Shown: positions 1,791-32,125 of the stretch, piece by piece | Layout: each line of letters begins with the position of its first letter | How positions within the stretch are numbered: the first letter of the stretch is position 1 | Assembly: GCF_037042905.1 (NCBI RefSeq) | Contig: NC_087245.1 | Location: forward strand, 27,654,001 to 27,718,000 | Direction of reading: 5' to 3' | Length of the DNA stretch: 64,000 nucleotides | DNA from: Lytechinus pictus | Taxonomy: Eukaryota | The notes under the pieces: model-generated | The model's input: the letters and a program-made list of their open reading frames with translations, nothing else | Told to the model about the DNA's origin: nothing | The model's database searches: none | Position numbers and translations under genes: made by a program

Positions 1791-2822
1791 CTCTTTACGA
1801 ATTTCAATATCTATCCAAAACATGTCACTTTTCGATATCATATTTGATGATTGTCTCAGTCCAATATCAAATGTAATCAAAATGTGAATATATTTTGTTA
1901 CTTTTAATAAGGACTTTCTGTAATTTTTACATGAAGCTACATCATTACAGTTGTTATGCCAGATGTTTATTTGTTAATGGCTTTTGTAGTAGAAATCATA
2001 CGAGTATGACAGATATTTTGAGAAAAAAAATCAAGAATACAATGGAAAACAATGAACATACGTTGTTTTCTAGTACTGCTTCCACGCCGTTTCTTTTGAA
2101 TTCGTTTTGAGTGTTTTTCTTTCGACTTTTCTACTTTACCATCGCCTTGAATAATCTTCTGTGCCTTTGTCTTGACCAATTCCCATGTGAATTGATGACA
2201 TCCTTCACCCGTTACGGATGATTTATTTTCTAGTACGACGTCTTTAATTATACAAGCCACATTCCCTAATGGGCCATACATTAACACCCTTATATAAACA
2301 GTATTAACGTCTATTGGAGAAGAAAACATATTAGATATCATATTTCATAATCAAACAAAGAGGTAAATCAAACAGAAAAGGGGGCTCGAACGCACGAATG
2401 TGCATCAAAGACAAAATTTGAATTTCAAATAAAGTCGCTATCGTAAGCAAGTAATCAATCGGATGAGGTTCGAGGTGTCTGTTTTGAAGCGAAAATGCGA
2501 CAGGGCCATGGCTGTATGGAAATCATCGATGAATTATGACGTAATATATCTCAATCTTGGTTGAGGAATGTCTACAGTGATGATTTCTGTGACAGTGGAT
2601 TGTTGAATCAAACTGGAAAATGCAACTAATGGCAATAAATATTTGCGTCTTCAATGAAATCAATCCTTGATTAATGAATACGAAGTTGACTTATTTTTCT
2701 TTATCAATGCAATGAAAAGAAGAATCATTGCGACAAATCCCAAAAGATTATTTTTTCTTAATGATAAAAAAAAATCTTTTCAATCCTTTCACTCACAGGA
2801 CTCTGCTTCACAACCCTCACAC

Positions 2823-3084
2823 ATGATGGTGACTGACACAACTAAACTGTTGCTTCTGGCAGCCATATTTTCTGTTATCCTTGCGTGCCTTCCATCGCTC
2901 GGCCAGTGCTTCGTGATCTACGAAGATGAAGTCGATGACGAGAACGAAAACGATGGCGAATGGAAAAGAGGGTACTCCCGGAATAACGTGGTCGCCGATC
3001 CTGTTCTAAGGTCGCCGGTTACCTACAGCTCGATGAGTAAATATTTACAAGGACTGGCATCGAGACGATTTGTAAGAGACCCAC
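2823..3084 (+). CDS. Neuropeptide precursor, first coding exon (exon probably starts at 2799): signal peptide, acidic spacer, KR and first peptide region
   Basis: Acceptor tctttt caatcctttcactcacAG at 2797-2798, ATG at 2823. Hydrophobic signal-like LLLLAAIFSVILACLPSLGQC, acidic EDEVDDENENDGEW, dibasic KR, then GYSRNNVVADPVLRSPVTYSSMSKYLQGLASRRFVRDP. Donor CAC|GTAAGT at 3084/3085 (phase 1). Confidence 0.9.
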
Positions 3085-6000
3085 GTAAGTTTTTGCTTTT
3101 TTTCTGTCCTTAAAATGTTTGACATCTAAAAAAAAGAGGGTGAAATATTCTTTTCCTAACAACCAAAAACTAATGTCATAGGAATTATGTGAGGTGGGCT
3201 CTCACCCATGCCCCCTCCCTCCCCGTACTATGCTAGTAAACATTATACGTATTTCCTTTAACATCATTACCATGATTACTAGTTGTTAATTCTAGCCAAA
3301 GTTTAAACAATATAGAAAGACATTTGAAGGTGTTAAAGTGATCCGAGAGTATCGAGCAACATTTATTTGTGATTTTTGTCCTACCATTACAAATTTTTTT
3401 CAAACTTTATTAAAACTCTTTAATATTCTGTTTAATCAACGCCATTATACTGAAGGATAAACTTATTTTGTAATTTTGGGTGACTTAAAAGCTTTACAAT
3501 AAAACATCCAAAGCTCTGAAGTTTGTAAGATTTTTATTTCCTATCTGGTTGAATGGTTTAAGATATACTTCCCTGAGGAGGGGTCGGTCGATGTACGAAC
3601 CTAAGAACCTTAAATCAAGAAGTACACGATGAACTCGACCACCTTTCCTAAAAATTCCGAGAAGACGATGACGCTCTCCTATCGACCATCGGACAAAATG
3701 TAAATATTATTGCATGTGATCGGTAATGTGAATATAATGTCAATAATTGGGTGCCGCACTCGAACTTATTTCTCAAATTTAGACAGCTGCAGAAAATCTC
3801 ATTCATCATTCGGTATGCATGGGCATACACTAATGTTCTGAATGCGCCAAAGGTCCACCGATGTTTTGAGTTTGTTTTGTTTTAATAGTTTGGTGGGAGG
3901 GGGTGGGTGTGTGTGAGGGAGTGTATGTGGGTGGGTGCACGCGTTAGCTTGGATAGAGTTCATGGCCGTACGCAGAATTTTTTTTTTGGGGGGGCAGGAC
4001 ACGTAGAATTTTAGAAGAAACTCAAAAGCGATGGAAGAAAGTGACTGAGCTTGTAATGGGGACCTTTGCATTGTCTAAGGTGATATGAAAGGGTTTGTAC
4101 AAACCTTTGAAGATGTTTGTGAACGTTTTCAGTAAAAATATAAGTTTTCAAAATTTCCACCCCCCCCTCCGCTGCGTATGACAATGTTTGGGTATATTTT
4201 CAGTTTAATTTCTCTCTATGGGTTGTCCTCATGGTTCTTAAATACGATCATGACTTTCTTCTTCATCTCGAAGCTTGGTAACTGAATATGTTTGATCATG
4301 TCACATTTAAGATAGTATGATGTTTTCCTTGAATAATTGGTCACACCTGGGCCATATAAAATTAGGCCTTCTGGGTACTTCCCAGTGCCCCCATAGCCGC
4401 AGATTGGGACAATCCTAACACTCATTTGATTTTAAATATGAGTCAATCATTGATAAAAGAAAGATAGACGGAGATAGAGTTCGAAATTAATGTGGGTGTG
4501 TCAAATGTGGGTGAGTGGGTGTGTTCATCGATGTATTAAAGAGAAAGGATGTGTATATTATTCTGAGTGGGTGATCATGTGTCTTCGAGTTAAAATCTTA
4601 CAAGGGTATGGTATAAAACAACGATTAATAGTACGAACATCTAGCACATTGTTGTCAATAGACATAAAGCGCTTTACTAAGACAGAAAATTATAGTAACA
4701 ATACAACAAACCATGAACATAAAACATGAGAATGAAAACCTTGCCTGAGTCTGCGAATATAAAGTGGGGTGGTTAAGGAATAATTTCTGAATACATTAGG
4801 AGAAGAAGTGTCTGGATAAAAGAGACATATAAAGGGAAGGGTTTGTGCGAGAGAGTGGATGGGTAGAGAGGGTAGACAGAGAAGCGGAAGAAGCGAACGC
4901 GAGAGGGTGCGCTTATGTGGGTGGGTGCATGGTTGGGCGTAATTGCGTGTGTTTGTGGTTTGTACTTGTAAAGAGGAGAGGGGTATACTAGATGTTTATT
5001 GTCTTGTGTAATTGTATTGTATGTGTAATTACTGAAGTGTCGGTATTCTGGGTGGCTGGGTTTTGATGGGTGTGTGGGTGGGTGGGTTGAGTATAGGAAT
5101 TTCTGCAAGTAGAGCTTAGTGAAAAACGGGAAAAGGTGAAGGGGAGGGGAAAAATCCCCTTCTCTTCACCCATTCCTAAATTTCTAAAAACAATTCACGA
5201 TTTTTCTAGCATTTAACATGATTGAGAGAGTTGTTAGAACCAATGTACTACTACATCCATACTCATTCTTATGGCTGTGAGTCAAATGACCCATGTTTAA
5301 TCTATGATTATGTGTCAGTCAACGGTTGAATTCACAACCTCATGTTCGTGTACTCTCCCAACTGAGCCAACTTGACCTGTCCTGCAAGAGCAAAGAAAAT
5401 ATATATGTCGAGAAAGGGTGTAAGGAAAAAAGGGTAAAATAAAATTTCCGGGGGGGGGGGTAGGCGGCATTGGCATATTTGCGTAGGATTAGGCTTCAGG
5501 GGCGACGAAACACAGAGTGTTGTTTGTATCGTATTTTCGACGTAAAGTTTTTATTTGTGTCCTGCTAAATCTTTAATATTAAAGCCAAGCTAATAATAAA
5601 ATTAATATTTAAAATATGATTCATGGCTTACTTGCTTCGCTCACACACAAATTGTCCACAATAACACTCCGTACCCAAATTTATTCCCCTCTAATATTAG
5701 GATCGTTATTACGCTAGAAAGACATGCAAAAGGAGGGGAAGAGGGGTGGTCGGTAGATTAGGGCTGCTTTTGACCTTAGACATCAGATACTTCAGATTTC
5801 AATATCCGGAGGAGTTGAAGTGGGCGACAAACATTTTGTCACGTGTTATTACTTATTAGTCTCCGAATGACGTGACAAGTCTTCATCTTGAATAGTTCTC
5901 TAGCTTCAGTTTCCGTTCTCGTGGCACCGAGAGCCACAAACATTATTACAGAATATGGGTCTTTTATGATAAACATCATCGCGTCAAAATGAAAACTGAA

Positions 6001-6528
6001 TGTGTAAAGAAGTTACGGCTAATTAAACTTAAAGAACCATTTATGTCGTTACTATTGGTTATCAGCCATGATCCGCTTTTTAATTTTTTGGCTTAATGGC
6101 TGACAGCTTTTCGACTGCCGAATACATTGTTGGCATAAAGAAGTCACAACTTTATAATGAGACATGAAAAGTGTTTAAGAAATTGCCGTGTCGTTTGCTG
6201 AAATACTAGACCAGTGTTCCATGCATACTTAACAGAGACCTTATTGTCAAATGCCCTTCATGATCAAGAACGACCAAGAAATCTTTGTGTCGAAATTGGT
6301 GAATCAAAACAGCAATTTCATCCTTGACTCTGGAAAAACGACATATTTGCAGTTTATTGGTCTGCTTCGGAACACCAATGTTCGACAAAGACCTCTGAGC
6401 CCCCCCCCCTATTTTTTTGTTTTTTTCTATTTGACAGGCATTTTCACTACATTTATTGTGTACTCGAATCCGTCCCGGTTGCTTATTAGTGCATCCGGGC
6501 CACATCTCACAAAGATCTGAGATTGATC

Positions 6529-6660
6529 TGGGGCCCTTTTCATAAAACTTGTTATAATAACAAATTTGCAATAACAGTTAAAAGCTACTGAAATCCTTCA
6601 ATCTGATTGGTTGATAGTAAATTTGTTATAAAAATTCAGCAATTTTCTATTATATCAATA
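6529..6660. mobile_element. Truncated MITE with GGGGCCC terminus (related copy at ~38649-38795)
   Basis: ggggcccttttcataaaacttgtt start resembles ggggcccgtttcataaagaattgtt at 38649. Both have an internal CCAAT-like core. Confidence 0.45.
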
Positions 6661-9600
6661 ATAAATTCAAATGCATACGTTACTATCTGAATATATATAT
6701 TCTGTGATATCAACATGCACAGTCTCTGTGCCCCGTTCGGAGCCCCGTCTTTTTATCTCATGGGTTTTAACATTTAACCTTTGGAACTCTTGAGGAAGTC
6801 GCAGAGAGACTTGATTTTGTCAGAAATCGCCACCTCCAAACTTGTATGATGGGAACTGGGTGCCGATATGAGAGTATCTAGCCTAATTAAAGTTTAACAC
6901 TTCCCGATCCTTGTATCATTCTCTTCTTGGAAGATCTCTTCAGAGACATTAATATTGAATTGCGTTGTCCCTTTGGTTTTGTGTCACCAGATCGCCTCCA
7001 ATCATTGTCAAACGCAAGGTCTTCCCTGTGGCAAGTGTAACAGGTTATCCTCTTGAGCCACGGACGCGATTTAGTTACAAAGGACGATGCTTCAGTTTCA
7101 AGCACAATCGTCAAACCAGTAATGATAAAACAAATTTCATTAGTTCCGCCCCTCCCCCTCTTCGCGATATTCTTATTTTTGAAGATTCCTAATTGTCAGA
7201 CTGTATTATATTGATATTAATAACAACATACAACAACAACAACCACAACAATGATGATAATGATTATAATGATGATGATGATGTTAATGATAATAATCAT
7301 ACATAGGGTCTATTTAGCGCCCATCTTTATTAGATACTCAATTTAAACTTTCCTATTAATTCAGGTTTTCAATGGACGACAAAGAATTTGACATAATCAG
7401 ACCAGTCGTTGTTCTCTAAATGCAAAACAGAGACATGTTAGAAGAGACATTTCCACACTCCACAGAGATTATCACCTACACTTAACATGCAATGACCCGT
7501 ACTTATCAATTTGACAAGGGCTTTCTCTGAAGTCTGCCTGTCAGCAATCAACCCCATGGACACGGACCAATGAATAAGGGACATTGCCTGACAGTGAATA
7601 ATTCCCGACAGAAGGCATCCCCTCCATTGGTCAGACCGTCAGAAAAATCCCCAAGAATCGCCAAGCCGTCAAGTCGACAGGTCATTTGCAGCCGTTCTTT
7701 CCCCGCTTATAGCGTAGAACGCGTTTCATCGTTTTCAGATAAAATACCTGTCGTAATAGCATGGGCGGCGCCATAGGAAGGAGGGGGTGGGGTAGGGGCT
7801 ACCACCCTTTTGATTTTTTTTCTAAGCAATGGAAAAGTGTGAAAATGAAGAGGGAGAATGGGTAAAAAATAAGGAATGTATAAAATAAAATATTTATAAA
7901 ATATTTAAAATCCCTATAATTTGATTCATAAACAAAAACATAAAGTCATTTTTCGTGGGTAGCCTTGCCTCCCTCATGAAATAAAAATATCCCGGCACTG
8001 CATCCGGTTGTTATATACCTGTAAAAACAAATTGACCAATAATATTAAAGTTTTGATAGAGCAGTTAATTTCTAAATGAACCACAAATTGGGAAAGTACC
8101 ATATGAAAGATTAACGAACTAATGGATCAATCAGTCAGTGCTAAATACAAAAACAAATGAATAATTAGGTAAATTAATAAAAAAGAATCTGAATCATGAT
8201 AAATAATTGATATTGATTGCAGGATTATGTCGACCTGAAAAGATCAATGGTAGATGTGAAACTCTTTGTTTGGCCACAGTCTAAAGGAAGTTTTTCAGTA
8301 CGCTGGCGTCTTGATTTTTCGTATCTTATCGTGCGTGTTTAATGGTTTGTAAAATGATTAGCATCTTGTCTGTAACCATCATCTTTCCACCCCATTCACC
8401 CTCCCCCTCTGACGTTTTATTTCTCTTTCTCTCTCTCTCTCTGTCTTGTTTCTCTCAATATTCATCTCCCATTTCGCTTCTTCATCCCTCTTTTATTCTC
8501 TCTCCCGGTGCATCCTTCAACTCAACAACCATTCATGTGTAATGCAATATTGCTAATTCTTGAAGATTTATAGCTATTTCAGTCCTTTAATCAAGTTAAT
8601 TCAACAATTTTGTAAGAAAGCCGTCTGTACACTGGCGGAAAATCCTTCAATTTTCCAAAATTTCTTTTAAGCTTTCAGTCCTGTCTGTCGTATTAATGAG
8701 AGTTCATGAACATCATGAAAGTCTAGGTTTTACTACATCGAGAGCTGGGTAGGCCTATACGGTATATGATATGACATAGTTTGGTCTATGGGGGAAATCG
8801 GAGACATTTTAAGGCTCAAATCTATTTGAATTTAGAGCTCTCAAACGAAATTATATTCCAAAATAACCAGAAAAAAACACATGCTTCTTTATCGGTTTTG
8901 TGTATCTTTACCCAACCTTGTATATTCAGTTCAAATGCTATGTGAATACTAAAATCTAAGGATTTAACATAAATCCAGTGATCAGCCGAATATTATCTAG
9001 ATTTAGATTTAAACCTTGTGAATATGAATTTAAAGCTGAATGATTTGAAATGAAGTCTTTTGAGATATAATCACTGGAACGTCAAAAATAAATCCAGTAT
9101 TCGCCTGATAACTAATCACAGCCAATACGAATTTATTCTAAATGACTGGAATTTAGATATATATCTGTACTTATTCTAGGGGAAAGCATGATTACATTGT
9201 TAGATTAAAAACTGTAATAGTACACGGTAACTTAAGGACGTTATAAAAGAAATTGATTGCAACTCAACTGTCAATAACTTTCAGTAGGTTTCAACAGTCA
9301 TGACGCTAAAAATAAAATGGGAAATTCATGTAGTGCGGTTAATGAGCCCACTCTGTATTTTAGAGTTTTGTACTATTACTAAATATTTCACCTAAAAAGA
9401 AGGCTCATATTTTTTAGTGCAGCGAGTCAGTTAAGAAGGGCAATCAATTCTGAATATGTATTAAATCAAAATCAGCCTTTGACGAAAATTTTGTAATTAA
9501 GACATTCTAAGGGCCACGGGAAGATGGAAAATTACCTTTTACTTAGCTAAAGCAATGTCATGAATCATCTGAAGGTTCAAGTAGCATCCTATATTTGAAG

Positions 9601-10688
9601 CATTGAATTGCACGCACAATTTTTGGTCGTGTGAGGGCGCACATCTTCACTACTGAACCACTGCAACTGTTTTCACTCCTTTTTTTTTATTCAAATGTTT
9701 TTACGCGCTACATTACTTGTTTTTTTACGTAAATATACCTCAAATGTTTATTCAGCCCACATTCCGACAATTCGTCCCCTCTTTTTTGGTTATCACAATT
9801 CACTCATTATGTTGCTTTACATTTTTCATTTCATGTCTTATGATTTTTTTTAGTCCACTCTGTCTGCCATTGTTTTTATTAAAAAAAAATGATTTTCATA
9901 GTTTCAAGTGGACTTCTCTTTTTCCAGCGAAACATTGATTCACGATACTTTTTAGATTGCAATGAGTATTTTCAAATTTCAGTTTCAAATCTATGATAGA
10001 AACTTTATATTGCATTTTTTGTATACTTTATTTGTAATATCCATGATACTTGTATGTATTTTGTTGTAATAAATTGATATAAAAAGTAAGAATTGACAAT
10101 TGAAACTTAATTGAACGCCCATTTTGTCGAAACACATTATATGGGTCTGAATGTGTAGACTACAGAAGACGAATATGAAGTGTGCAATGTAGTTTCTCCA
10201 AAATAAGAGTTTGTGCTAGTCCTCTATCAAGACCCACTTTTGCGGAAAATACATTTGAGTAACTTTATGCTTCCATCCAGGCAGACTGCATGTCAGCTGA
10301 ATGTCGCGACCGTTGCCTAATGTGGGAAGTCAATGACGATTGAAACATGATCTGATTTGATTTCTCTTCATTTATCTCATTCTCTCTTCTTTTTGGGTTA
10401 ATATATTTCTGTATTTCTTAAACTCTGCTTTGTTGTATTAATAATACATTTCATGAATGCACATGTTTTTGACAATATTCATGTATTAGAGTATTTCAAC
10501 CATTGATATTTATCCCGCCCTTCTATGACGAAATCCATAATAGACTGTGTCAATGAATGTAATGTTAATTCATTTCATTTCTCTTTTCTTTCTTTTTTCT
10601 CTCTCTTCTCCCCCTTTTCTCTCTCTCCATTTTCTCTCTCACTATCACTCTCTTTCTCTTTCCTCCCCCTCTTTCTTTCAACATTCAG

Positions 10689-10837
10689 AAATGGACAAGA
10701 GACAAGTAAATGTTGGTCTTCGTCTGGTGTCATTGGAAAGGTTACGTAATCATCTCAACACCGTGGCTGATTCCAGGAGCAGACAGAAACTTCGCCATAA
10801 TCAGAATCTCATGGACCGGGTCGGCAGGAGGAGATAA
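10689..10837 (+). CDS. Neuropeptide precursor, last coding exon, encoding a CRH/DH44-type peptide
   Basis: Long polypyrimidine tract then cattcAG (10687-10688). Phase 1 matches the 3084 donor (C+AA=Gln). Reads MDKR-QVNVGLRLVSLERLRNHLNTVADSRSRQKLRHNQNLMDRV-GRRR-stop. Spliced ORF is 411 nt = 136 aa. Confidence 0.88.
10703..10825 (+). other. Predicted mature 40-aa pGlu...Val-amide CRH-type peptide plus amide-donor Gly
   Basis: Bounded by KR and G-RRR, N-terminal Gln. C-terminally anchored ungapped alignment to human CRH(1-41) shares L15, R16, L19, Q29, N34, L37, M38. Confidence 0.8.
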
Positions 10838-17691: not shown

Positions 17692-18937
17692 AGGGACTCC
17701 TGGCTCCTGTATTACTAAAGAGCAGTGGTGAATGGCCGTTTCTCATTTCCAAATCACCCTCGTTACTGAATTTGATTGTTGTAGCGTAATGTAAAATATA
17801 AATCTAAAATGAAATATTTTGATTTCCTAGGATCTTAAGCTTTCGTTGAGTTTCTTTTACTGTTACTTTTATTGCACAAATGATATTAGTTAATTTGCAA
17901 TTAAAAACGATTTTCTTCCATAAATATAAAGTACACAGAGATCTTTAGTCTTTAATTATCCTTGGAATGTAACATTATTATTAGAAATATTTAATCTCAT
18001 TTCATCTTATCATAATTCTATTCTAAATTATAATCAACCTTTAGTATAAACTGATGATATTGACAACATTTGGATAACTTTTTTCTTCATAGCTATCATA
18101 AATTGATTTGTTGGGACAGTACATCACATTTTGAGGTCTATTTTTATGCATTCGTCTCAGGCGCGTATCCAGGATTCTGATTTTGGCGCCCCTATGTACT
18201 TTTCGAAAAATTGCGCCCCCTCCCTCTCCACCAAGCAAACATTCAAGTGCCTTACATGCATGTTTAATTACTTTATTTCATAGTCACATGAAAGAAAGGC
18301 AATTGAAGACTACTTAAAAAAAAAATGATGTGTTCATGAAAAAAAATCCATGAATATATGTAATACCACTTTTTTAAAAACTAAATGCGTTTTTCCGTTT
18401 TAAGCATTTTGGTTTAAGTGCCTTAAATGCATGTTGAATTATTTCATTTCATAGTCACATGAAAAAAGGCGATTGAAGACTACTAAGAATTTCAGTAAAC
18501 TGATCTGAAAAGGAACCTGGTAATGACAGTTTGCAATGACTCATAAAGCGGATATTGCGAGCGCGAGCTGAAAATTTTAATATACTGATCTGAAAAGCGA
18601 CCTGATAATGACGGTTTCCCGTGACTCATGAAAAGGATAGGGCATATGTATTACCAATCATATAATGCAATTGCGAAGTGCCAGCAGTATAATAGGTTTA
18701 AGCAATTTTTGTAAAAATGAACAGAATAGGTATCTTGTCAAAAAATATTGATGCGAGCGCGAAGCGCGAGTTTGGAATTGGAAATTTGCTTTTCGTAATT
18801 TTTAAGAGAATGGGTATTTATCTAAACAAATTATGCGAGTGCAAAGCGCGAGCTATTTTTTTCCAACTTTTAAACTGCAACTTTTTAAGCACTTTTTGTA
18901 ACCATGAAAAGAATAGGTATCTCACTAAACAATCGAT

Positions 18938-21900
18938 GCGCCCCCTGGTTCGAACATCAATTCAGCACCCCGCCCTAGTTCGAACACCATTCCGGTGCCT
19001 CCCTCGTTCGAGCATTGATAAAGCCCCCTCCCCTAGTTCGAACATCAATCCAGCGCCCCCCCTAGTTTGAACATCAATTCGGTGCCTCCTAGTTCAAACA
19101 TCAATCCGGCGCCCCTAGTTCGAACATCGATTCCGCGCCCTCTAGTTCGAACATCAATTTGGCGCCCTCCCCCCACTTCAAGCATAAATTTTGGGGCCCC
19201 TACTTCAAACATCAATCCGGCGCCCCCTAGTTCGAGCATCGATTCGCCCCCCCCCCTAGCAAAAATTTTACGCACACTAAATCGAACATCAATTTGGCAC
19301 CCCCTAGTTTGAACGTTAATTCGGCACCCCCCCCCCCCCGTTGCGAACATAAATTCGGCACCCCCTAATTCGAACATCGATTCGGCGCCCCCTCTTAGTT
19401 CGAACATCAATTCTGCGCCCCCTAATCGAATATCAATTCGGTGCCCCCTAGTTAGAACATCGATTCGGCGCCCTTCTAGCTCGAACATCAATTTCGCGCC
19501 CCCCTAGTTTGAACCTCAATTCGGCGCCCCTTTGTTCGAACATTAGTTTGGCGCCCCCTAGTTCTAGTTTAATTCAATTCAATTCTTTTTCAAACATCAA
19601 TTCGGCGCCCCATAGTTCGAACATAAATTTGGCGCCCCTACTTCGAACATCAATTCAGCACCCCTCCCTAGTTCGAACACCAGTTCGGTGCCTCCCTACT
19701 TCGTACATTGATTAAGCCCCCTCCCCCCCCCCCCCCCCTAGTTCGAACATCAATTCAGCGTCCCCCTAGCTTGAACACCAATTAGGCGCTCCCTGGTTCA
19801 AACATAAATTCGGTGCCCCCTATATAGTTCAAAAAACAATCCGGCACCCCCTGCTTCAACATCAATCCGGCACCCCCTGCTTCAACATCAATCCGGCACC
19901 CCCTACTTCAAACATCAATCGGCGCCCCCTAGGCCGAACATCAATTCGGCGCCCCCTTCTAGTTCGAACATCAATTGGTGCCCCCTGTAGTTCGAACATA
20001 ATTTAGGCGCCCCCCACTTCAAACATCAATTTCGAGCCCCTGGTTCGAACATCGATTCGGCGCCCCTTTGTTTGAACATCAATTTGGCGCCCCCCTAATT
20101 CGAACATCGACTCAGAGCCCCCGCCTCGCCCCCTAGTTCGAACATTAATTCTGTACCCCCTAGCTCGAACATAAATTCGATGCCCCCAAGTTCAAACATC
20201 AATCCGGCGCCCCCTAGTTCAAACATCAAACGGCACCCCATAGTTCGAACATAAATTCGGCGCCCCCTTGGCCGAACATCAATTCGGACCCCCCTCCCGA
20301 CCTAGTTGGAACATCAATTCGGTGCCCCCCTTCTAGTTCGAACATCAATTTGGCTCCATCCCCAATTCGGTGTCCCCCGGTTCCCCCCCCCCCCCCGTTG
20401 CGAACATAATTTTGGCGCCCCCCCCATCTTCAAACATCAATTTTGAGCCCCTGGTTCGAACATCGATTCGGCTCCCCCTCGTTTGAATATCAATTTGGCG
20501 CCCCCAAATTCAAACATCGATTCGGAGCCCCCGCCTCGCCCCCGAGTTCGAACATCAATTCTGTACCCCCCTAGTTCGAACATGAATTCGGTGCCCCCAA
20601 GTTCAAACATCAATCCGGCACCCAATAGTTCGAACATAAATTCGGCGCCCCCTAGACCGGACATCAATTCAGACCCCCCCCCCGACCTAGTGGGAACATC
20701 GATTTGGTGTCCCCCTCTAGTTCGAACATCAATTTGGCGCCCCCTCCACTTTAAAAATCAATTTTGCACCCACCTAGATCGAACATCGATTCGGCGCAAC
20801 CTCCGAGTTTGAACATCAATTTTGCGCCCCCTAATTCGAACATCATTTCGGCCCCCCTCGTTCTTACATCTATTCAGCGCCCTTCTAGTTTGAACATTAA
20901 TTTAACTGGCGCCCATCTAGTTCGAACCTCATTTTGGCGCCCCTTTGTTTGAACATCACTTTGACGCCCCTCTAGTTCGAACATCAATTTCGTGCCCCCC
21001 TAGTTCGAACCTCAATATGGCACCCCCTTTGTTCAAACATCAATTCGGAGCCGCGACCTAGTTGGAACATCAATTCGGTGCCCCCCTTCTAGTTCGAACA
21101 TCAATTGACCCCCCTATTTCGATCATCGATCCGGCGCCCCCTAGTTCAAACATCGATTCGGAGCCCCCACCTAGTTGGAACATCAATTCGGTGCCCCCCC
21201 TCTAGTTCAAACATCGATTTGGCTCCCCCCTAGTTCGAACCTCAATTCGGCGCCCCCTTTGTTCGAACATTAGTTTGGACCCCCTAGTTCTAGTTTAATT
21301 CAATTCAATTATATTTCAAACATCAATTCAGCACCCCTCCCTAGTTCGAACACCAGTCCGGTGCCTCACTACTTCGTACATTAATTAAGCCCCCCCCCTA
21401 GTTCGAACACCAATTTGGCGTCCGCTAGTTCGAACATCAATTCAGCGTCCCCCTAGCTTGAACACCAATTAGGCGCTCACTAGTTCAAACATCAATCCGG
21501 CGCCCCCTACTTCAAACATCAATCTGGCGCCCCCTACTTCAAACATCAATCAGCGCCCCATAGTTCGAACATAAATTCGGCGCCCCCTAGGCCGAACATC
21601 AATTCGGCGCCCCCTTCTAGTTCGAACATCAATTGGTGCCCCCTGTAGTTCGAACATAATTTAGGCGCCCCCCCCCCCCCCACTTCAAACATCAATTTTG
21701 AGCCACTGGTTCGAAGATCGATTCGGCTCCCCCTTGTTTGAACATCAATTTGGCGCCTCCTAATTCGAACATCCATTCGGAGCCCCCGCCTCGCCCCCTA
21801 GTTCGAACATCAATTCTGAATCCCCCTAGTTCGAACATGAATTCGGTGCCCCCTAATTCAAACATCGATCCCCCCGACCTAGTAGGAACATCAATTCGGT

Positions 21901-24900
21901 GCTCCCCATCTAGTTCGAACATCAATTTGGCGCCCCCCCCAACTTCAAACATCAATTTTGCACCCACCTAGTTCGAACTTAAATTCGGTGTACCCGGTTC
22001 CCCCCCCCCCCCGTTGTAAACATAATTTTGGCGCCCCCCCCCCCCACTTCAAACATCAATTTTGAGCCCCTGGTTCGAACATCGATTCGGCTCCCCCTTG
22101 TTTGAACATCAATTTGGCGCCCCCTAATACAAACATCGATTCGGAGCCCCCACCTCGCCCCCGAGTTCGAACATGAATTCTGTACCCCCCCTAGTTCGAA
22201 CATGAATTCGGTGCCCCCAAGTCCAAACATCATTCCCGCGCCCCCTAGTTCAAACATCAATCGGCACCCAATAGTTCGAACATAAATTCGGCGCCCCCTA
22301 GGCCGAACATCAATTCGGCGCCCCCTTCTAGTTCGAACATCAATTGGTGCCCCCTGTAGTTCGAACATAATTTTGGCGCCATCCCACTTCAAACATCAAT
22401 TTCGAGCCCCTGGTTTGAACTTCGATTCGGCGCCCCTTTGTTTGAACATCAATTTGGTGCCCCCCTAATTCGAACATCGACTCAGAGCCCCCGCCTCGCC
22501 CCCTAGTTCGAACATCAATTCTGTACCCCCTAGCTCGAACATGAATTCGGTGCCCCCAAGTTCAAACATCAATCCCCCCGACCTAGTAGGAACATCAATT
22601 CGGTGCTCCCCCCCTAGTTCGAACTTCAATTTGGCGTCCGCTAGTTCGAACATCAATTCAGCGTCCCCCTAGCTTGAACACCAATTAGGCGCTCCCTAGT
22701 TCAAACATCAATTAGGTGCCCCCTAGTTCAAACATCAATTCGGTGCTCACTAGTTCAAACATCAATCCGGCGCCCCCTACTTCAAACATCAATCAGCGCC
22801 CCTTTGTTTGAACATCACTTTGACGCCCCTCTAGTTCGAACATCAATTTCGTGCCCCCCTAGTTCGAACCTCAATATGGCGCCCCCTTTGTTCAAACATC
22901 AATTCGGAGCCGCGACCTAGTTGGAACATCAATTCGGTGCCCCCCTTCTAGTTCGAACAGCAATTGACCCCCCTATTTCGATCATCGATCCGGCGCCCCC
23001 TAGTTCAAACATCGATTCGGAGCCCCCACCTAGTTGGAACATCAATTCGGTGCCCCCCCTCTAGTTCAAACATCGATTTGGCTCCCCCCTAGTTCGAACA
23101 TCAATTCAGCACCCCTCCCTAGTTCGAACACCAGTCCGGTGCCTCACTACTTCGTACATTAATTAAGCCCCCCCCCCCTAGTTCGAACACCAATTTGGCG
23201 TCCGCTAGTTCGAACATCAATTCAGCGTCCCCCTAGCTTGAACACCAATTAGGCGCTCACTAGTTCAAACATCAATCCGGCGCCCCCTACTTCAAACATC
23301 AATCTGGCGCCCCCTACTTCAAACATCAATCAGCGCCCCATAGTTCGAACATAAATTCGGCGCCCCCTAGGCCGAACATCAATTCGGCGCCCCCTTCTAG
23401 TTCGAACATCAATTGGTGCCCCCTGTAGTTCGAACATAATTTAGGCGCCCCCCCCCCCCCCACTTCAAACATCAATTTTGAGCCCCTGGTTCGAACATCG
23501 ATTCGGCTCCCCCTTGTTTGAACATCAATTTGGCGCCCCCTAATACAAACATCGATTCGGAGCCCCCACCTCGCCCCCGAGTTCGAACATGAATTCTGTA
23601 CCCCCCCCCCCCTAGTTCGAACATGAATTCGGTGCCCCCAAGTCCAAACATCATTCCCGCGCCCCCTAGTTCAAACATCAATCGGCACCCAATAGTTCGA
23701 ACATAAATTCGGCGCCCCCTAGGCCGAACATCAATTCGGCGCCCCCTTCTAGTTCGAACATCAATTGGTGCCCCCTGTAGTTCGAACATAATTTTGGCGC
23801 CATCCCACTTCAAACATCAATTTCGAGCCCCTGGTTTGAACTTCGATTCGGCGCCCCTTTGTTTTAACATCAATTTGGTGCCCCCCTAATTCGAACATCG
23901 ACTCAGAGCCCCCGCCTCGCCCCCTAGTTCGAACATCAATTCTGTACCCCCTAGCTCGAACATGAATTCGGTGCCCCCAAGTTCAAACATCAATCCCCCG
24001 ACCTAGTAGGAACATCAATTCGGTGCTCCCCCCCCCCCCTAGTTCGAACTTCAATTTGGCGTCCGCTAGTTCGAACATCAATTCAGCGTCCCCCTAGCTT
24101 GAACACCAATTAGGCGCTCCCTAGTTCAAACATCAATTAGGTGCCCCCTAGTTCAAACATCAATTCGGTGCTCACTAGTTCAAACATCAATCCGGCGCCC
24201 CCTACTTCAAACATCAATCTGGCGCCCCCTACTTCAAACATCAATCAGCGCCCAATAGTTCGAACATAAATTCGGCGCCCCCTAGGCCGAACATCAATTC
24301 GGCGCCCCCTTCTAGTTCGAACATCAATTGGTGCCCCCTGTAGTTCGAACATAATTTAGGCGCCCCCCCCCCCACTTCAAACATCAATTTTGAGCCACTG
24401 GTTCGAACATCGATTCGGCTCCCCCTTGTTTGAACATCAATTTGGCGCCCCCTAATACAAACATCGATTCGGAGCCCCCGCCTCGCCCCCGAGTTCGAAC
24501 ATGAATTCGGTGCCCTCAAGTTCAAACATCATTCCGGCGCCCCCTAGTTCAAACATCAATCGGCACCCAATAGTTTGAACATAAATTCGGCGCCCCCTAG
24601 GCCGACCATCAATTCGGACCCCCCTTCTAGTTCGAACATCAATTGGTGCCCCCTGTAGTTCGAACATAATTTTGGCGCCATCCCACTTCAAACATCAATT
24701 TCGAGCCCCTGGTTCAAACATCGATTCGGCACCCCTTTGTTTGAACATCAGTTTGGTGCCCCCCTAATCCGAACATCGATTCAGAGCCCCCGCCTCGCCC
24801 CCTAGTTCGAACATCAATTCTGTACCCCCTAGCTCAAACATGAATTCGGTGCCCCCAAGTTCAAACATCGATCCGGAGCCCCCTAGTTCAAACATCAATC

Positions 24901-27900
24901 GGCACCCCATAGTTCGAACATCAATTCGGCGCCCCCTAGGCCGAACATCGATTCGAACACCCCCCCCCCAGACCTAGTTGGAACATCACTTCGGTGCCCC
25001 CCTTCTAGTTCGAACATTTATTTGGCGTCAACCCCCCCCCCCACTTCAAACATCAATTTTGCACCCACCTAGTTCGAACTTCAATTCGGTGTCCCCCGGT
25101 TCACCCCCTCCCCCGTTGCGAACATAATTTTGGCGCCCCCCCCCTCTTCAAACATCAATTTTGAGCCCCTGGTTCGAACATCGATTCGGCTCCCCCTTGT
25201 TTGAACATTAATTTGGCGCCCCCTAATTCAAACATCGATTCGTAGCCCCCGCCTTGCCCCCGAGTTCGAACATCAATTCTGTACCCCTAGCCCGAACATC
25301 AACTCGGACCCCCACCCCCCCCCCCCGACCTAGTGGGAACATCAATCTGGTGCCCCCCCCCCCTAGTTCGAACATCGATTCGGCGCAACCTCTGAGTTTG
25401 AACATCAATTTTGCACCCACCTAGTTCGAACTTCAATTCGGTGTCCCCCGGTTCACCCCCCCCCCCGTTGCGAACATAATTTTGGCGCCCTCCCCCCCCC
25501 ACTCTTCGAACATCAATTTTGAGCCCCTGGTTCGAACATCGATTCGGCTCCCCCTTGTTTGAACATGAATTCGGTGCCCCCAAGTTCAAACATCAATCCG
25601 GCACCCAATAGTTCGAACATAAATTTGGCGCCCCCTAGGCCGAACATCAACTCGGACCCCCCCCCCGACCTAGTGGGAACATCAATTTGGTGCCCCCCCC
25701 CCTAGTTCGAACATCGATTCGGCGCAACCTCTGAGTTTGAACATCAATTTTGCACCCTCTAATTCGAATATCATTTCGGCCCCCCTCGTTCTTACATCTA
25801 TTCAGCGCCCTTCTAGTTTGAACATTAATTTAACTGGCGCCCTTTAGTTCAAACATCAATTCGGAGCCCCCTAGTTCAAACATCAATTCGGAGCCGCGAC
25901 CTAGTTGGAACATCAATTCGGCGCCCCCCTTCTAGTTCGAACATCAATTGGCCTCCCTATTTCGAACATCGATCCGGCGCCCCCTAGTTCAAACATCAAT
26001 TCGGAGCCCCCACCTAGTTGGAACATCAATTCGGTGCCCCCCCCCCCCATCTAGTTCGAACATCAATTTGGATCCCCCCTAGTTCGAACCTCAATTTGGG
26101 ACCCCCTTTGTTCGAACATTCGTTTGGACCCCCTAGTTCTAGTTAAATTAAATTCAATTCTATTTCAAACATCAATTCAGCACCCCTCCCTAGTTCGAAC
26201 ACCAGTCCGGTGCCTTCCTGCTTCGTATATTGATTAAGCCCCCCCCCCCCTAGTTCGAACATCAATTTGGCGTCTGCTAGTTCGAACATCAATTCAGCGT
26301 CCCCCTAGCTTGAACACCAATTAGGCGCTCCCTAGTTCAAACATAAATTCAGTGCCCCCTAGTTCAAACATCAATTCGGTGCTCCCTACTTCAAACATCA
26401 ATCTGGTGACCCCTACTTCAAACATCAATCGGCGCCCCATAGTTCGAACATAAATTCAGCGCCCCCTAGGCCGAACATCAATTCGGCGTCCCCTTCTAGT
26501 TCGAACATCAATTGGTGCCCCCTGTAGTTCAAACATAATTTTGGCGCCCCCCCCCCCCCCACTTCAAACATCAATTTTGAGCCCCTGATTCGAACATCGA
26601 TTCGGCTCCCCCTTGTTTGAACATTTATTTGGCGCCCCCTAATTCGAACATCGATTCGGAGCCCCCGCCTCGCCCCCTAGTTCGAACATTAATTCTGTAC
26701 CCCCCTAGTTCGAACATGAATTCGGTGGCCCCTAGTTTAAACATCGATCCCACCCGACCTAGTTGGAACATCAATTCGGTGCCCCCCTTCTAGTTCGAAC
26801 ATCAATTTGGCGCCCCCCCTTCAAATATCAATTTTGCGCCCCCCCTTCAAACATCAATTTTGCGCCCACCTAGTTCGAACTTCAATTCGGTGTCCCCCGG
26901 TTCTCCCCCCCCCCCGTTGCGAACATAATTTTGGCGCCCCCCCCCCGCCCCACTTCAAACACCAATTTTGATCCCTGGTTCGAACATCGATTAGGCTCCC
27001 CCTTGTTTGAACATGAATTCGGTGCCCCCAAGTTCAAACATCAATCCGGCGCCCCCTAGTTCAAACATCAATCGGCACCCAATAGTTCGAACATAAATTC
27101 GGCGCCCCCTAGGCCGAACATCAATTCGGACCCCCCCCCCGACCTATTGGGAACATCAATTTGGTGCCCCCCTCTAGTTCGAACATCAATTTCGTGCCCC
27201 CCTAGTTCGAACCTCAATATGGCGCCCCCTTTGTTCGAACATCAATTTGGCGCCCCCTAGTTCTAGTTTAATTCAATTCAATTCTATTTCAAACATCAAT
27301 TCGGCGCCCCATAGTTCGAACACTAATTTGGCGCCCCTAGTTCGAACATCAATTTAGCACCCCTCCCTAGTTCGAACACCAGTTCGGTGCCTCCCTACTT
27401 CGTACATTGATTAAGCCCCCCCCCCCCTAGTTCGAACATCAATATGCCGTCTGCTTGTTCGAACATCAATTCAGCGTCCCCCTAGCTTGAACACCAATTA
27501 GGCGCTCCCTAGTTCAAACATAAATTCGGTGCCCCCTAGTTCAAACATCAATTCGGTGCTCCCTAGTTCAAACATCAATCCGGCGCCCCCTACTTCAAAC
27601 ATCAATCTGGTGCCCCCTACTTCAAACATCAATCGGCGCCCCATAGTTCGAACATAAATTCGGCGGCCCCTAGGCCGAACATCAATTCGGCGTCCCCTTC
27701 TACTTCGAACATCAATTGGTGCCCCCCCCTTCAAATATCCCACCCGTTGCGAACATAATTTTGGCGCCCCCCCCCCCCACTTCAAACACCAATTTACATC
27801 CCTGGTTCGAACATCGATTAGGCTCCCCCTTGTTTGAACATGAATTCGGTGCCCCCAAGTTCAAACATCAATCCGGCGCCCCCTAGTTCAAACATCAATC

Positions 27901-30900
27901 GGCACCCAATAGTTCGAACATAAATTCGGCGCCCCCTAGGCCGAACATCAATTCGGACCCCCCCCCCCGACCTATTGGGAACATCAATTTGGTGCCCCCC
28001 TCTAGTTCGAACATCAATTTCGTGCCCCCCTAGTTCGAACCTCAATATGGCGCCCCCTTTGTTCGAACATCAATTTGGCGCCACCTAGTTCTAGTTTAAT
28101 TCAATTCAATTCTATTTCAAACATCAATTCGGCGCCCCATAGTTCGAACACTAATTTGGCGCCCCTAGTTCGAACATCAATTTAGCACCCCTCCCTAGTT
28201 CGAACACCAGTTCGGTGCCTCCCTACTTCGTACATTGATTAAGCCCCCCCCCCCCCTAGTTCGAACATCATTTTGGCGTCCGCTAGTTCGAACATCAATT
28301 CAGCGTCCCCCTAGCTTGAACACCAATTAGGCGCTCCCTAGTTCAAACATCAATCCAGCGCCCCCTACTTCAGACATCAATCCGGTGCCCCCTACTTCAA
28401 ACATCAATCTGGCGCCCCATAGTTCGAACATAAATTCGGCGCCCCCTAGGCCGAACATCAATTCGGCGCCCCCTTCTAGTTCGAACATCAATTGGTGCCC
28501 CCTGTAGTTCGAACATAATTTTGGCGCCCCCCCCCCCCCGCACGTCAAGCATCAATTTTGAGCCCCTGGTTCGAACATCGATTCAGCTCCCCCTTGTTTG
28601 AACATCAATTTGGCACCCCCTAATTCGAACATCGATTCGGAGCCCCCGCCTCGCCCCCTAGTTCGAACATCAATTTGGCGCCCTCTCCACTTTAAACATC
28701 AATTTTGCACCCACCTAGATCGAACATCATTTCGGCCCCCCTCGTTCGAACATCTATTCGGCGCCCTTCTAGTTTCAACATTAATTTAACTGGCGCCCAT
28801 CTAGTTCGAACCTCAATTTGGCGCCCCTTTGTTTGAACATCCTTTGACGCCCCCTAGTTCAATCATCGATCCGGCGCCCCCTAGTTCAAACATCAATTTG
28901 GAGCCCTCTAGTTCAAACATCAATTCGGAGCCGCGACCTAGTTGGAACATCAATTTGGCGCCCCCCCCCTTCTAGTTCGAACATCAATTGGCCACTCTAT
29001 TTCAAATATCAATCCGGCGCCCCCTAGTTCAAACATCAATTCGGAGACCCCACCTAGTTGGAACATCAATTCGGTGCCCCACCCCCTCTAATTCGAACAT
29101 CAATTTGGCTACCCCCTAGTTCGAACCTCAATTCGGCGCCCCCTTTGTTCGAACATTAGTTTGGACCCCCTAGTTCTAGTTAAATTCAATTCAATTCTAT
29201 TTCAAACATCAATTCAGCACCCCTCCCTAGTTCGAACACCAGTCCGGTGCCTCCCTGCTTCGTACATTGATTAAGCCCCCCCCCCCCCTAGTTCGAACAT
29301 CAATTTGGCGTCTGCTAGTTCGAACATCAATTCAGCGTCCCCCTAGCTTGAACACCAATTAGGCGCTCCCTAGTTCAAACATAAATTCAGTGCCCCCTAG
29401 TTCAAACATCAATTCGGTGCTCCCTAGTTCAAACATCAATCCGGCGCCCCCTACTTCAAACATCAATCTGGTGACCCCTACTTCAAACATCAATCGGCGC
29501 CCCATAGTTCGAACATAAATTCAGCGCCCCCTAGGCCGAACATCAATTCGGCGTCCCCTTCTAGTTCGAACATCAATTGGTGCCCCCTGTAGTTCGAACA
29601 TAATTTTGGCGCCCCCCCCCCCACTTCAAACATCAATTTTGAGCCCCTGATTCGAACATCGATTCGGCTCCCCCTTGTTTGAACATTTATTTGGCGCCCC
29701 CTAATTCGAACATCGATTCGGAGCCCCCGCCTCGCCCCCTAGTTCGAACATTAATTCTGTACCCCCCTAGTTCGAACATGAATTCGGTGCCCCCTAGTTT
29801 AAACATCGATCCCACCCGACCTAGTTGGAACATCAATTCGGTGCCCCCCTTCTAGTTCGAACATCAATTTGGCGCCCCCCCTTCAAATATCAATTTTGCG
29901 CCCCCCCCCCCTTCAAACATCAATTTTGCGCCCACCTAGTTCGAACTTCAATTCGGTGTCCCCCGGTTCTCCCCCCCCCCCCCGTTGCGAACATAATTTT
30001 GGCGCCCCCCCCCCACCCCACTTCAAACACCAATTTTGATCCCTGGTTCGAACATCGATTAGGCTCCCCCTTGTTTGAACATGAATTCGGTGCCCCCAAG
30101 TTCAAACATCAATCCGGCGCCCCCTAGTTCAAACATCAATCGGCACCCAATAGTTCGAACATAAATTCTGCGCCCCCTAGGCCGAACATCAATTCGGACC
30201 CCCCCCCCCGACCTATTGGGAACATCAATTTGGTGCCCCCCTCTAGTTCGAACATCAATTTCGTGCCCCCCTAGTTCGAACCTCAATATGGCGCCCCCTT
30301 TGTTCGAACATCAATTTGGCGCCCCCTAGTTCTAGTTTAATTCAATTCAATTCTATTTCAAACATCAATTCGGCGCCCCATAGTTCGAACACTAATTTGG
30401 CGCCCCTAGTTCGAACATCAATTTAGCACCCCTCCCTAGTTCGAACACCAGTTCGGTGCCTCCCTACTTCGTACATTGATTAAGCCCCCCCCCCCCTAGT
30501 TCGAACATCAATATGCCGTCTGCTTGTTCGAACATCAATTCAGCGTCCCCCTAGCTTGAACACCAATTAGGCGCTCCCTAGTTCAAACATAAATTCGGTG
30601 CCCCCTAGTTCAAACACCAATTCGGTGCTCCCTAGTTCAAACATCAATCCGGCGCCCCCTACTTCAAACATCAATCTGGTGCCCCCTACTTCAAACATCA
30701 ATCGGCGCCCCATAGTTCGAACATAAATTCGGCGGCCCCTAGGCCGAACATCAATTCGGCGTCCCCTTCTACTTCGAACATCAATTGGTGCCCCCTGTAG
30801 TTCGAACATAATTTTGGCGCCCCCCCACTTCAAACATAAATTTTGAGCCCCTGATTCGAACATCGATTCGGCTCCCCCTTGTTTGAACATTTATTTGGCG

Positions 30901-32125
30901 CCCCCTAATTCGAACATCGATTCGGAGCCCCCGCCTCGCCCCCTAGTTCGAACATGAATTCGGTGCCCCCTAGTTTAAACATCGATCCCACCCGACCTAG
31001 TTGGAACATCAATTCGGTGCCCCCCTTCTAGTTCGAACATCAATTTGGCGCCCTCCCCCCCACTTCAAATATCAATTTTGCGCCCCCCCCCCACTTCAAA
31101 CATCAATTTTGCGCCCACCTAGTTCGAACTTCAATTCGGTGTCCCCCGGTTCTCCCCCCCCCCGTTGCGAACATAATTTTGGCGCCCCCCCCCCACTTCA
31201 AACACCAATTTACATCCCTGGTTCGAACATCGATTAGGCTCCCCCTTGTTTGAACATGAATTCGGTGCCCCCAAGTTCAAACATCAATCCGGCGCCCCCT
31301 AGTTCAAACATCAATCGGCACCCAATAGTTCGAACATAAATTCGGCGCCCCCTAGGCCGAACATCAATTCGGACCCCCCCCCGACCTATTGGGAACATCA
31401 ATTTGGTGCCCCCCTCTAGTTCGAACATCAATTTCGTGCCCCCCTAGTTCGAACCTCAATATGGCGCCCCCTTTGTTCGAACATCAATTTGGCGCCCCCT
31501 AGTTCTAGTTTAATTCAATTCAATTCTATTTCAAACATCAATTCGGCGCCCCATAGTTCGAACACTAATTTGGCGCCCCTAGTTCGAACATCAATTTAGC
31601 ACCCCTCCCTAGTTCGAACACCAGTTCGGTGCCTCCCTACTTCGTACATTGATTAAGCCTCCCCCCCCCCTAGTTCGAACATCAATTTGGCGTCCAATAG
31701 TTCGAACATCAATACAGCGTCCCCCTAGCTTGAACACCAATTAGGCGCTCCCTAGTTCAAATATCAATCCGGCGCCCCCTACTTCAAACATCAATCCGGC
31801 GCCCCCTAGTTCAAACATCAATCGGCACCCCATAGTTCGAACATAAATTCGGCGCCCCCTAGGCCGAACATCAATTCGGCGCCCCTTCTAGTTCGAACAT
31901 CAATTGGTGCCCCCTGTAGTTCGAACATAATTTTGGTGCCCCCCCCCCTGCACTTCAAGCATCAATTTTGAGCCCATGGATCGAACATCGATTCAGCTCC
32001 CCCTTGTTTGAACATCAATTTGGCGCCCCCTAATTCAAACATCAATTCGGAGCCGCCTGACCTCGCCCCCGAGTTCGAACATCAATTCTGTACCCCCCTA
32101 GTTCGAACATCAATTGGTGCCCCCT
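18938..32125. repeat. ~13.2-kb tandem array of a ~30-bp minisatellite (consensus ~CTAGTTCGAACATCAATTCGGCGCCCCC) with kb-scale higher-order duplications
   Basis: Continuous variant monomers, roughly 430 by length/30. Diagnostic variants recur, e.g. ttctagtttaattcaattcaatt and cgtacattgattaagcccc. Identical spurious ORFs at 27818-28045 and 30059-30286. Confidence 0.97.

Follow-up and report, generated by a model that had tools for sequence, protein, structure and literature searches.

The window analysed here is a stretch of 64,000 nucleotides from the sea urchin Lytechinus pictus (NC_087245.1, forward-strand positions 27,654,001 to 27,718,000), within which two coding exons on the + strand encode a peptide precursor. 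Window positions 2826-3084 and 10689-10837, joined at GT/AG sites, translate into 135 residues that agree throughout with P0001, the RefSeq model XP_054767486.1 (LOC129274723), which is annotated as 'uncharacterized'. The first coding exon (2799..3084) holds a short 5' UTR, the signal peptide, an acidic spacer, a first Lys-Arg (KR) site and most of a companion peptide, hereafter peptide 1; its borders are a predicted pyrimidine-rich acceptor with AG at 2797-2798 and the donor GTAAGT at 3085, and it is also backed by tblastn of four orthologues. A phase-1 intron of 7604 nt with GT...AG ends follows (3085..10688). The exon junction is based on the splice signals, the RefSeq model and the existence of P0004, a spliced 135-residue relative from four short Logan contigs that is 87% identical to P0001 and supports the same junction.

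The order of elements in the precursor is signal peptide, acidic spacer, KR, the 41-residue peptide 1, KR, a CRH-like peptide and G-RRR. The predicted signal peptide (residues 1-28, 2826..2909; cleavage point judged by eye) forms the hydrophobic N-terminus, and a second in-frame ATG lies at 2823, ahead of the start at 2826. The acidic spacer (residues 29-46, 2910..2963) leads to the first dibasic site, K47-R48 (2964..2969), after which peptide 1 begins; residues 49-86 and the first base of codon 87 occupy 2970..3084 and include a conserved predicted helix (residues 68-83, 3027..3074), the core of which, residues 70-81 at 3033-3068, contains an internal R80-R81. Across the intron, residues 87-89 and the second dibasic site K90-R91 (10689..10702) are followed by the CRH-like peptide of 40 residues, with an N-terminal Gln and an amide-donor Gly (10703..10825), and by the RRR cleavage site and stop codon (10826..10837). 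Dibasic sites occur in P0001 at 47, 80, 90, 133 and 134 only. The original prediction had placed a glucagon/GLP-1-like peptide at 2970..3084, upstream of a CRH-like peptide in the same precursor; the presence of a second, dibasic-flanked segment in one precursor is borne out and the interval is a real coding exon, but the peptide itself runs on for three residues beyond the 7.6-kb intron, where the second KR site follows.

Several other features of the region deserve mention. Upstream of the coding exons, a TATA-like TATATAAA at 2291-2298, a donor-like site about 70 nt further on (about 2363) and a CRE-like TGACGTAA at 2537-2544 may mark a promoter and a first, non-coding exon of the CRH-like gene. 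A cluster of 16-bp-unit tandem repeats at 1140-1580, with a flip in orientation near 1370, is possibly a small mobile-element remnant, and about 18900-32100 is occupied by a degenerate tandem array of some 13 kb; its C-rich unit measures 27 bp, higher-order periods of 54 bp and more are present, and the array has a GC content of about 51% and a GC skew near -0.39. In the Strongylocentrotus purpuratus model XP_011662958.1 (P0002), the second KR is followed by 14 unrelated residues instead of the CRH-like peptide; no exon matching this tail was found in the window (best score 27/66), where a donor-like GTAAAT stands just after the first CRH codon. The P0002 ending reflects either an annotation error or an isoform that would supply peptide 1 but no CRH.

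The downstream peptide is called CRH-like here on the basis of architecture and of likeness judged by eye. The arrangement of KR, 40 residues and G-RRR-stop is kept in all four full-length urchin precursors, and the starfish ArCRH shares the length, the N-terminal Gln and the C-terminal Gly (PMC4772807). By eye, the urchin C-terminus resembles those of brittle-star CRH1 (PMC5627052) and acorn-worm CRH (translated by eye from a probe sequence cut at about 400 letters, PMC10508912), while the signal peptide of the Diadema orthologue resembles that of starfish ArCRHP. Profile and structure searches were less informative: Pfam CRF (PF00473) did not match the CRH-like peptide, no Pfam hormone family was returned for any of 10 queries (only sub-threshold, unrelated matches), and the one PDB match for the CRH-like peptide was to an irrelevant designed protein, in searches of low power. 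In the Atlas, a DH44 cluster ranked 7th at 0.88, which serves as a lead only. Semmens et al. (PMC4772807) mention an S. purpuratus precursor closer to CRH, which may correspond to an orthologue of the Lytechinus gene.

Protein searches returned orthologues in urchins only (S. purpuratus, two Diadema species, Logan proteins and the ENA protein P0008), and a search for longer homologous proteins found none. P0009 and P0010, spurious matches to unrelated repetitive proteins, were dropped, as was L001, a Trp-repeat protein. Counts over four sequences refer to P0001, P0004, P0003 and P0008, the last up to residue 85 only; P0005 and P0006 (intron read-through copies of P0004), P0002 (close to P0004, with a different tail) and P0007 (close to P0003) lie outside these counts. 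Over residues 68-83, an interval set beforehand by the original prediction, 11 of 16 columns are invariant, compared with 1 of 16 in the acidic spacer (residues 29-44; Fisher p=0.0003), in a sample that is small (n=4) and phylogenetically non-independent, with two sequences 87% identical. Among the three sequences with the CRH exon, the helix is also better conserved than the CRH-like peptide (13/16 versus 19/41 invariant columns, p=0.016). Conservation extends to the polar residues S71, Q75, S79, R80 and R81 as well as to the hydrophobic face (four sequences), and the E-W-K-R-G-Y context of K47-R48 is invariant in 4/4 aligned sequences. Judged from these alignments, the helix segment is under selection in urchins. 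However, it does not differ significantly from the signal peptide (13/28 invariant columns, p=0.13), and thus conservation alone is no proof of a ligand.

The C-terminus of peptide 1, on the same alignments, is not conserved in urchins. Residues 84-89 match at only one of six positions in Diadema, and a Gly ahead of the second KR, an amidation signal, is present in two of five urchin proteins checked, both from Diadema (P0003 and P0007), so that in Diadema, unlike Lytechinus and Strongylocentrotus, peptide 1 or a short C-terminal fragment of it could carry an amide. An AlphaFold model places a helix at residues 67-79, where pLDDT is below 50 (model mean 48.8, too poor for a fold search); on a helical wheel M70, L74 and L77 lie within 60 degrees of each other. 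Pro86 follows the helix, residues 84-87 after the Phe-Val pair being Arg, Asp, Pro and Gln.

Related segments were recognised by eye in brittle stars. Six of nine CRH-type precursors contain an acidic-aromatic-(x)-KR motif, a segment of 36-39 residues with a matching helix, a further KR and CRH; in one precursor, which is partial, the end of the helix is visible, and the remaining two (CRH1) are without this layout. For comparison, a seven-position pattern was used (hydrophobic at 1, 4, 5 and 8; Gly 7; Ala 9; Arg 12), which was defined after the sequences had been seen and is partly circular; by eye, the six brittle-star precursors score 7, 7, 7, 6, 5 and 5, and the CRH1 precursors 2 and 3. 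On the same scale starfish ArCRHP scores 5, starfish PDF2 7, the urchin CRH-like peptide 5, and the GLP-1 and glucagon strings quoted in the original prediction 5 and 3, respectively.

The resemblance to glucagon and GLP-1 that first drew attention to the locus is correctly described. The translation of 3027-3074 and the seven identities over 16 positions to each of the two quoted strings were reproduced (recounted by eye). Its significance depends on the number of peptides considered. An analytic estimate with two background compositions, one of them based on approximate frequencies, predicts 0.007-0.03 ungapped matches of at least 7/16 identities for a single peptide of 30 residues, 0.07-0.3 for ten class-B hormones and 0.7-3 for 100 peptides; these numbers would be higher if the periodicity common to helices were included. 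Within a single family such a match is suggestive, and across a broad repertoire of peptides it is ordinary. Nor do the identities hold up across orthologues. In the four urchin sequences S71, Y73, L74 and A78 are invariant (4 of the 7 GLP-1 identities), while S68, G76 and F82 vary, and the other seven helix positions that make up the 11 invariant ones (M70, Q75, L77, S79, R80, R81 and V83) are not GLP-1 identities. Counted by eye, GLP-1 identities drop to 6, 4 and 5 of 16 in P0004, P0003 and P0008, making L. pictus the best case, and glucagon identities to 6, 5 and 5; in brittle-star CRH2 about 3/16 and 1/16, respectively, remain, and the brittle-star counterparts are without the Ser, Tyr and Phe matches, so far as can be judged by eye. 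These glucagon-like residues look urchin-specific. The comparison of orthologues that had been proposed as a check is accordingly split: the helix is better conserved than the spacer, but selection does not track the glucagon matches.

Other hallmarks of the glucagon family are absent as well. As the original prediction itself had cautioned, the N-terminal H-x-[DEQ]-G-x-F-T is missing: no such free N-terminus follows a convertase site in register with the helix, position 1 in that register being L61, before which there is no cleavage site. The suggested echo of PHI (residues 56-63) lies five residues out of the GLP-1 register, with no cleavage site before it, so that the two resemblances are not both tenable without a gap. 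The hydrophobic, receptor-binding helix of glucagon-family peptides runs on past the Phe-Ile/Val pair; no such continuation is seen at residues 84-87. Pfam Hormone_2 (PF00123) gave no match at E<=10 for eight queries holding the segment, a search of low power given that the CRH-like peptide misses CRF too. The PDB gave 0 matches for peptide 1 and 0 for the four-sequence profile (again with low power), and Atlas matches to peptide 1 were all at or below 0.82, which is background level, with no glucagon-family cluster among the matches listed. With no in-register activation motif or cleavage site, identities that decay in orthologues and a match within chance over 100 peptides, kinship with the glucagon/PACAP superfamily is not upheld; the likeness is likely a coincidence of helix pattern (convergence) rather than a sign of shared ancestry.

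A better match, by eye, is provided by starfish PDF2, with 7/12 identities to residues 70-81. This too is not decisive, 0.09-0.5 such matches being expected among 100 peptides, and brittle-star PDF2 matches the same residues poorly and is without the Gly and Ala common to starfish PDF2 and peptide 1. Furthermore, the N-terminal N-D-F motif of 3/4 echinoderm PDF peptides is absent from P0001. Over such short helical stretches, matches to glucagon, PDF or CRH are evidently easily obtained, which is a warning for work of this kind.

What function might the conserved segment serve? The reading that we favour, to which we give about an even chance, is that peptide 1 is a 41-residue companion, likely cut out and co-released with the CRH-like peptide, that signals via its predicted amphipathic helix. 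Convertases would cut at K47-R48 and K90-R91, and peptide 1 would be stored and released in equimolar amounts with a pyroglutamyl, amidated CRH-like peptide of 40 residues. Residues 70-81 would form the helix, with M70, L74 and L77 on one face, and the internal R80-R81 would more likely belong to the motif than serve for cleavage, since of the two Arg only the second is retained in brittle stars. The likeliest putative target would be a class-B1 receptor of the CRH or PDF type, on which peptide 1 might act as agonist or modulator. A precedent for cross-talk among class-B1 receptors in echinoderms is the response of sea cucumber PDF-type receptors to calcitonin-type peptides (PMC12638048). The principal competitor, to which we accord a distinctly lower though still appreciable probability, is that the helix serves the folding, granule sorting or convertase access of the CRH-like peptide and, once excised, has no activity of its own. 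Amphipathic helices do serve as prohormone sorting signals. The hydrophobic face is the feature best kept across echinoderm classes, a Leu-rich, helix-like stretch can be made out by eye in the pro-regions of brittle-star CRH1 and acorn-worm CRH, and both the starfish form, in which the helix pattern persists although the first KR is missing, and the variable C-terminus, with Gly-KR in Diadema only, favour such a role. Against it stand the invariance in urchins of the polar residues and of the N-terminal cleavage context, the near-constant distance of 36-41 residues from one KR site to the next, seen in urchins as well as brittle stars, and a helix conserved above the hormone itself; the polar residues, the cleavage context and the length are the reasons for which signalling is preferred over sorting or processing.

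Two further proposals concern ancestry. That peptide 1 arose when an ancestral peptide of CRH or PDF type was duplicated in tandem and one copy degenerated, an origin compatible with either function, is a tentative and rather doubtful suggestion. Peptide 1 and the CRH-like peptide each span 41 codons, a residue-class motif (hydrophobic at 1, 5 and 8; Ala 9; Arg 12) occurs exactly twice in all four full-length urchin precursors, its two positions (residues 70 and 105) coincide with the best profile diagonal, the helix core has the likeness to starfish PDF2 noted above, and a figure legend in PMC4772807 gives two acorn-worm CRH peptides under one accession. However, this motif is a post hoc one, 2000 shuffles give the internal repeat no significance (p=0.15 with profiles and 0.11-0.65 with single sequences), and the shortcomings of the PDF comparison, in brittle-star PDF2 and in the missing N-D-F motif, weigh here too. 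Highly improbable, in our estimate, is the original proposal that peptide 1 is a true glucagon/PACAP-superfamily relative that shares a CRH precursor and is the ligand of an echinoderm receptor of the PTH/glucagon/PACAP clade. The idea had a rationale, because a PTH-type receptor without known ligand has been reported in ambulacrarians (PMC5627052), and in its favour remain the match to both quoted strings and the four GLP-1 identities invariant in urchins. Nor does low similarity exclude a ligand, since the amphioxus PACAP/GCG peptides, with only 10-15% shared with human PACAP (PMC7251081), and insect iPTH, with under 12% shared with PTH (PMC7224569), hardly resemble their vertebrate counterparts. 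Set against these points are the missing in-register motif and cleavage site, Pro86 after the helix, the decay of the identities in urchin orthologues and brittle-star CRH2, and the chance level of the match over 100 peptides. In addition, the protostome ligands of this clade, PXXXamide/iPTH, are reported to have precursors of their own (PMC8557429, PMC7224569), and no PACAP homologue is reported from 40 echinoderm transcriptomes or from genomes (PMC7251081), a search in which conserved baits were used. It is likewise very unlikely that the orphan echinoderm receptor of this clade has its missing ligand in peptide 1, such that one gene would serve two class-B systems and retain the trace of a common tandem precursor.

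Irrespective of its ancestry, the segment has some practical interest. Echinoderm CRH-type precursors are already known, and the conserved companion segment appears to be the new element; these precursors have been described as carrying one hormone, and the second segment is a synthesisable candidate for a new echinoderm neuropeptide as well as an inexpensive addition to the ligands with which orphan class-B receptors are screened. Without the glucagon link, the importance of the finding is mostly for specialists in neuropeptide evolution. No description of peptide 1 was found by full-text searches, whose coverage did not extend to the starfish CRH study of Cai et al. 2023, to the supplement on urchins of Wood 2018 or to the alignments that Zandawala gives as images, any of which may already show it; a full-text search with the gene identifiers and two short motifs returned 0 papers, and a term search of the main text of PMC9793003 found no mention of CRH.

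Compared with known systems, the closest parallel is offered by the CRH2-4 precursors of the brittle stars Ophionotus, Amphiura and Ophiopsila (PMC5627052), which show the same layout, usually with a later Asp-Pro, and one C-terminal CRH-type amide, but are without the internal RR of urchin peptide 1. They are treated there as CRH precursors, and the upstream segment goes unmentioned in the accessible portion of that paper. The C-terminus of the urchin CRH-like peptide is, in appearance, closer to that of brittle-star CRH1 than to theirs. Starfish ArCRHP (PMC4772807) is similar in size (130 versus 135 residues) and signal peptide, ends in a 41-residue Gln...Gly CRH-type peptide and has five of the seven helix-motif positions upstream of it; unlike the urchin precursor, it is without the first KR and has dibasic sites within the helix. 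According to Semmens et al. (PMC4772807), two putative neuropeptides typify PDF-type, not CRH-type, precursors. Echinoderm PDF-type precursors do resemble the urchin precursor in carrying two peptides, and the unamidated C-terminal helix of starfish ArPDF2 resembles urchin residues 70-81, but the two PDF-type peptides are mutually similar, whereas those of the urchin precursor are unlike each other. With the glucagon/GLP-1/PACAP family the likeness amounts to seven identical residues in the 16-residue L. pictus helix; the urchin peptide has no N-terminal motif or cleavage site in register, a Pro breaks the helix after Phe-Val, and the residues matching this family and amphioxus PACAP/GCG are not conserved across echinoderms. 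A functional precedent comes from locusts: OMP, a bioactive peptide encoded upstream of the hormone, is set free from the pro-region of OMP-CRF/DH precursors, which belong to the CRH family (PMC3282710); OMP is less conserved than its hormone and restricted to locusts so far, whereas the urchin companion is more conserved than the hormone that it accompanies.
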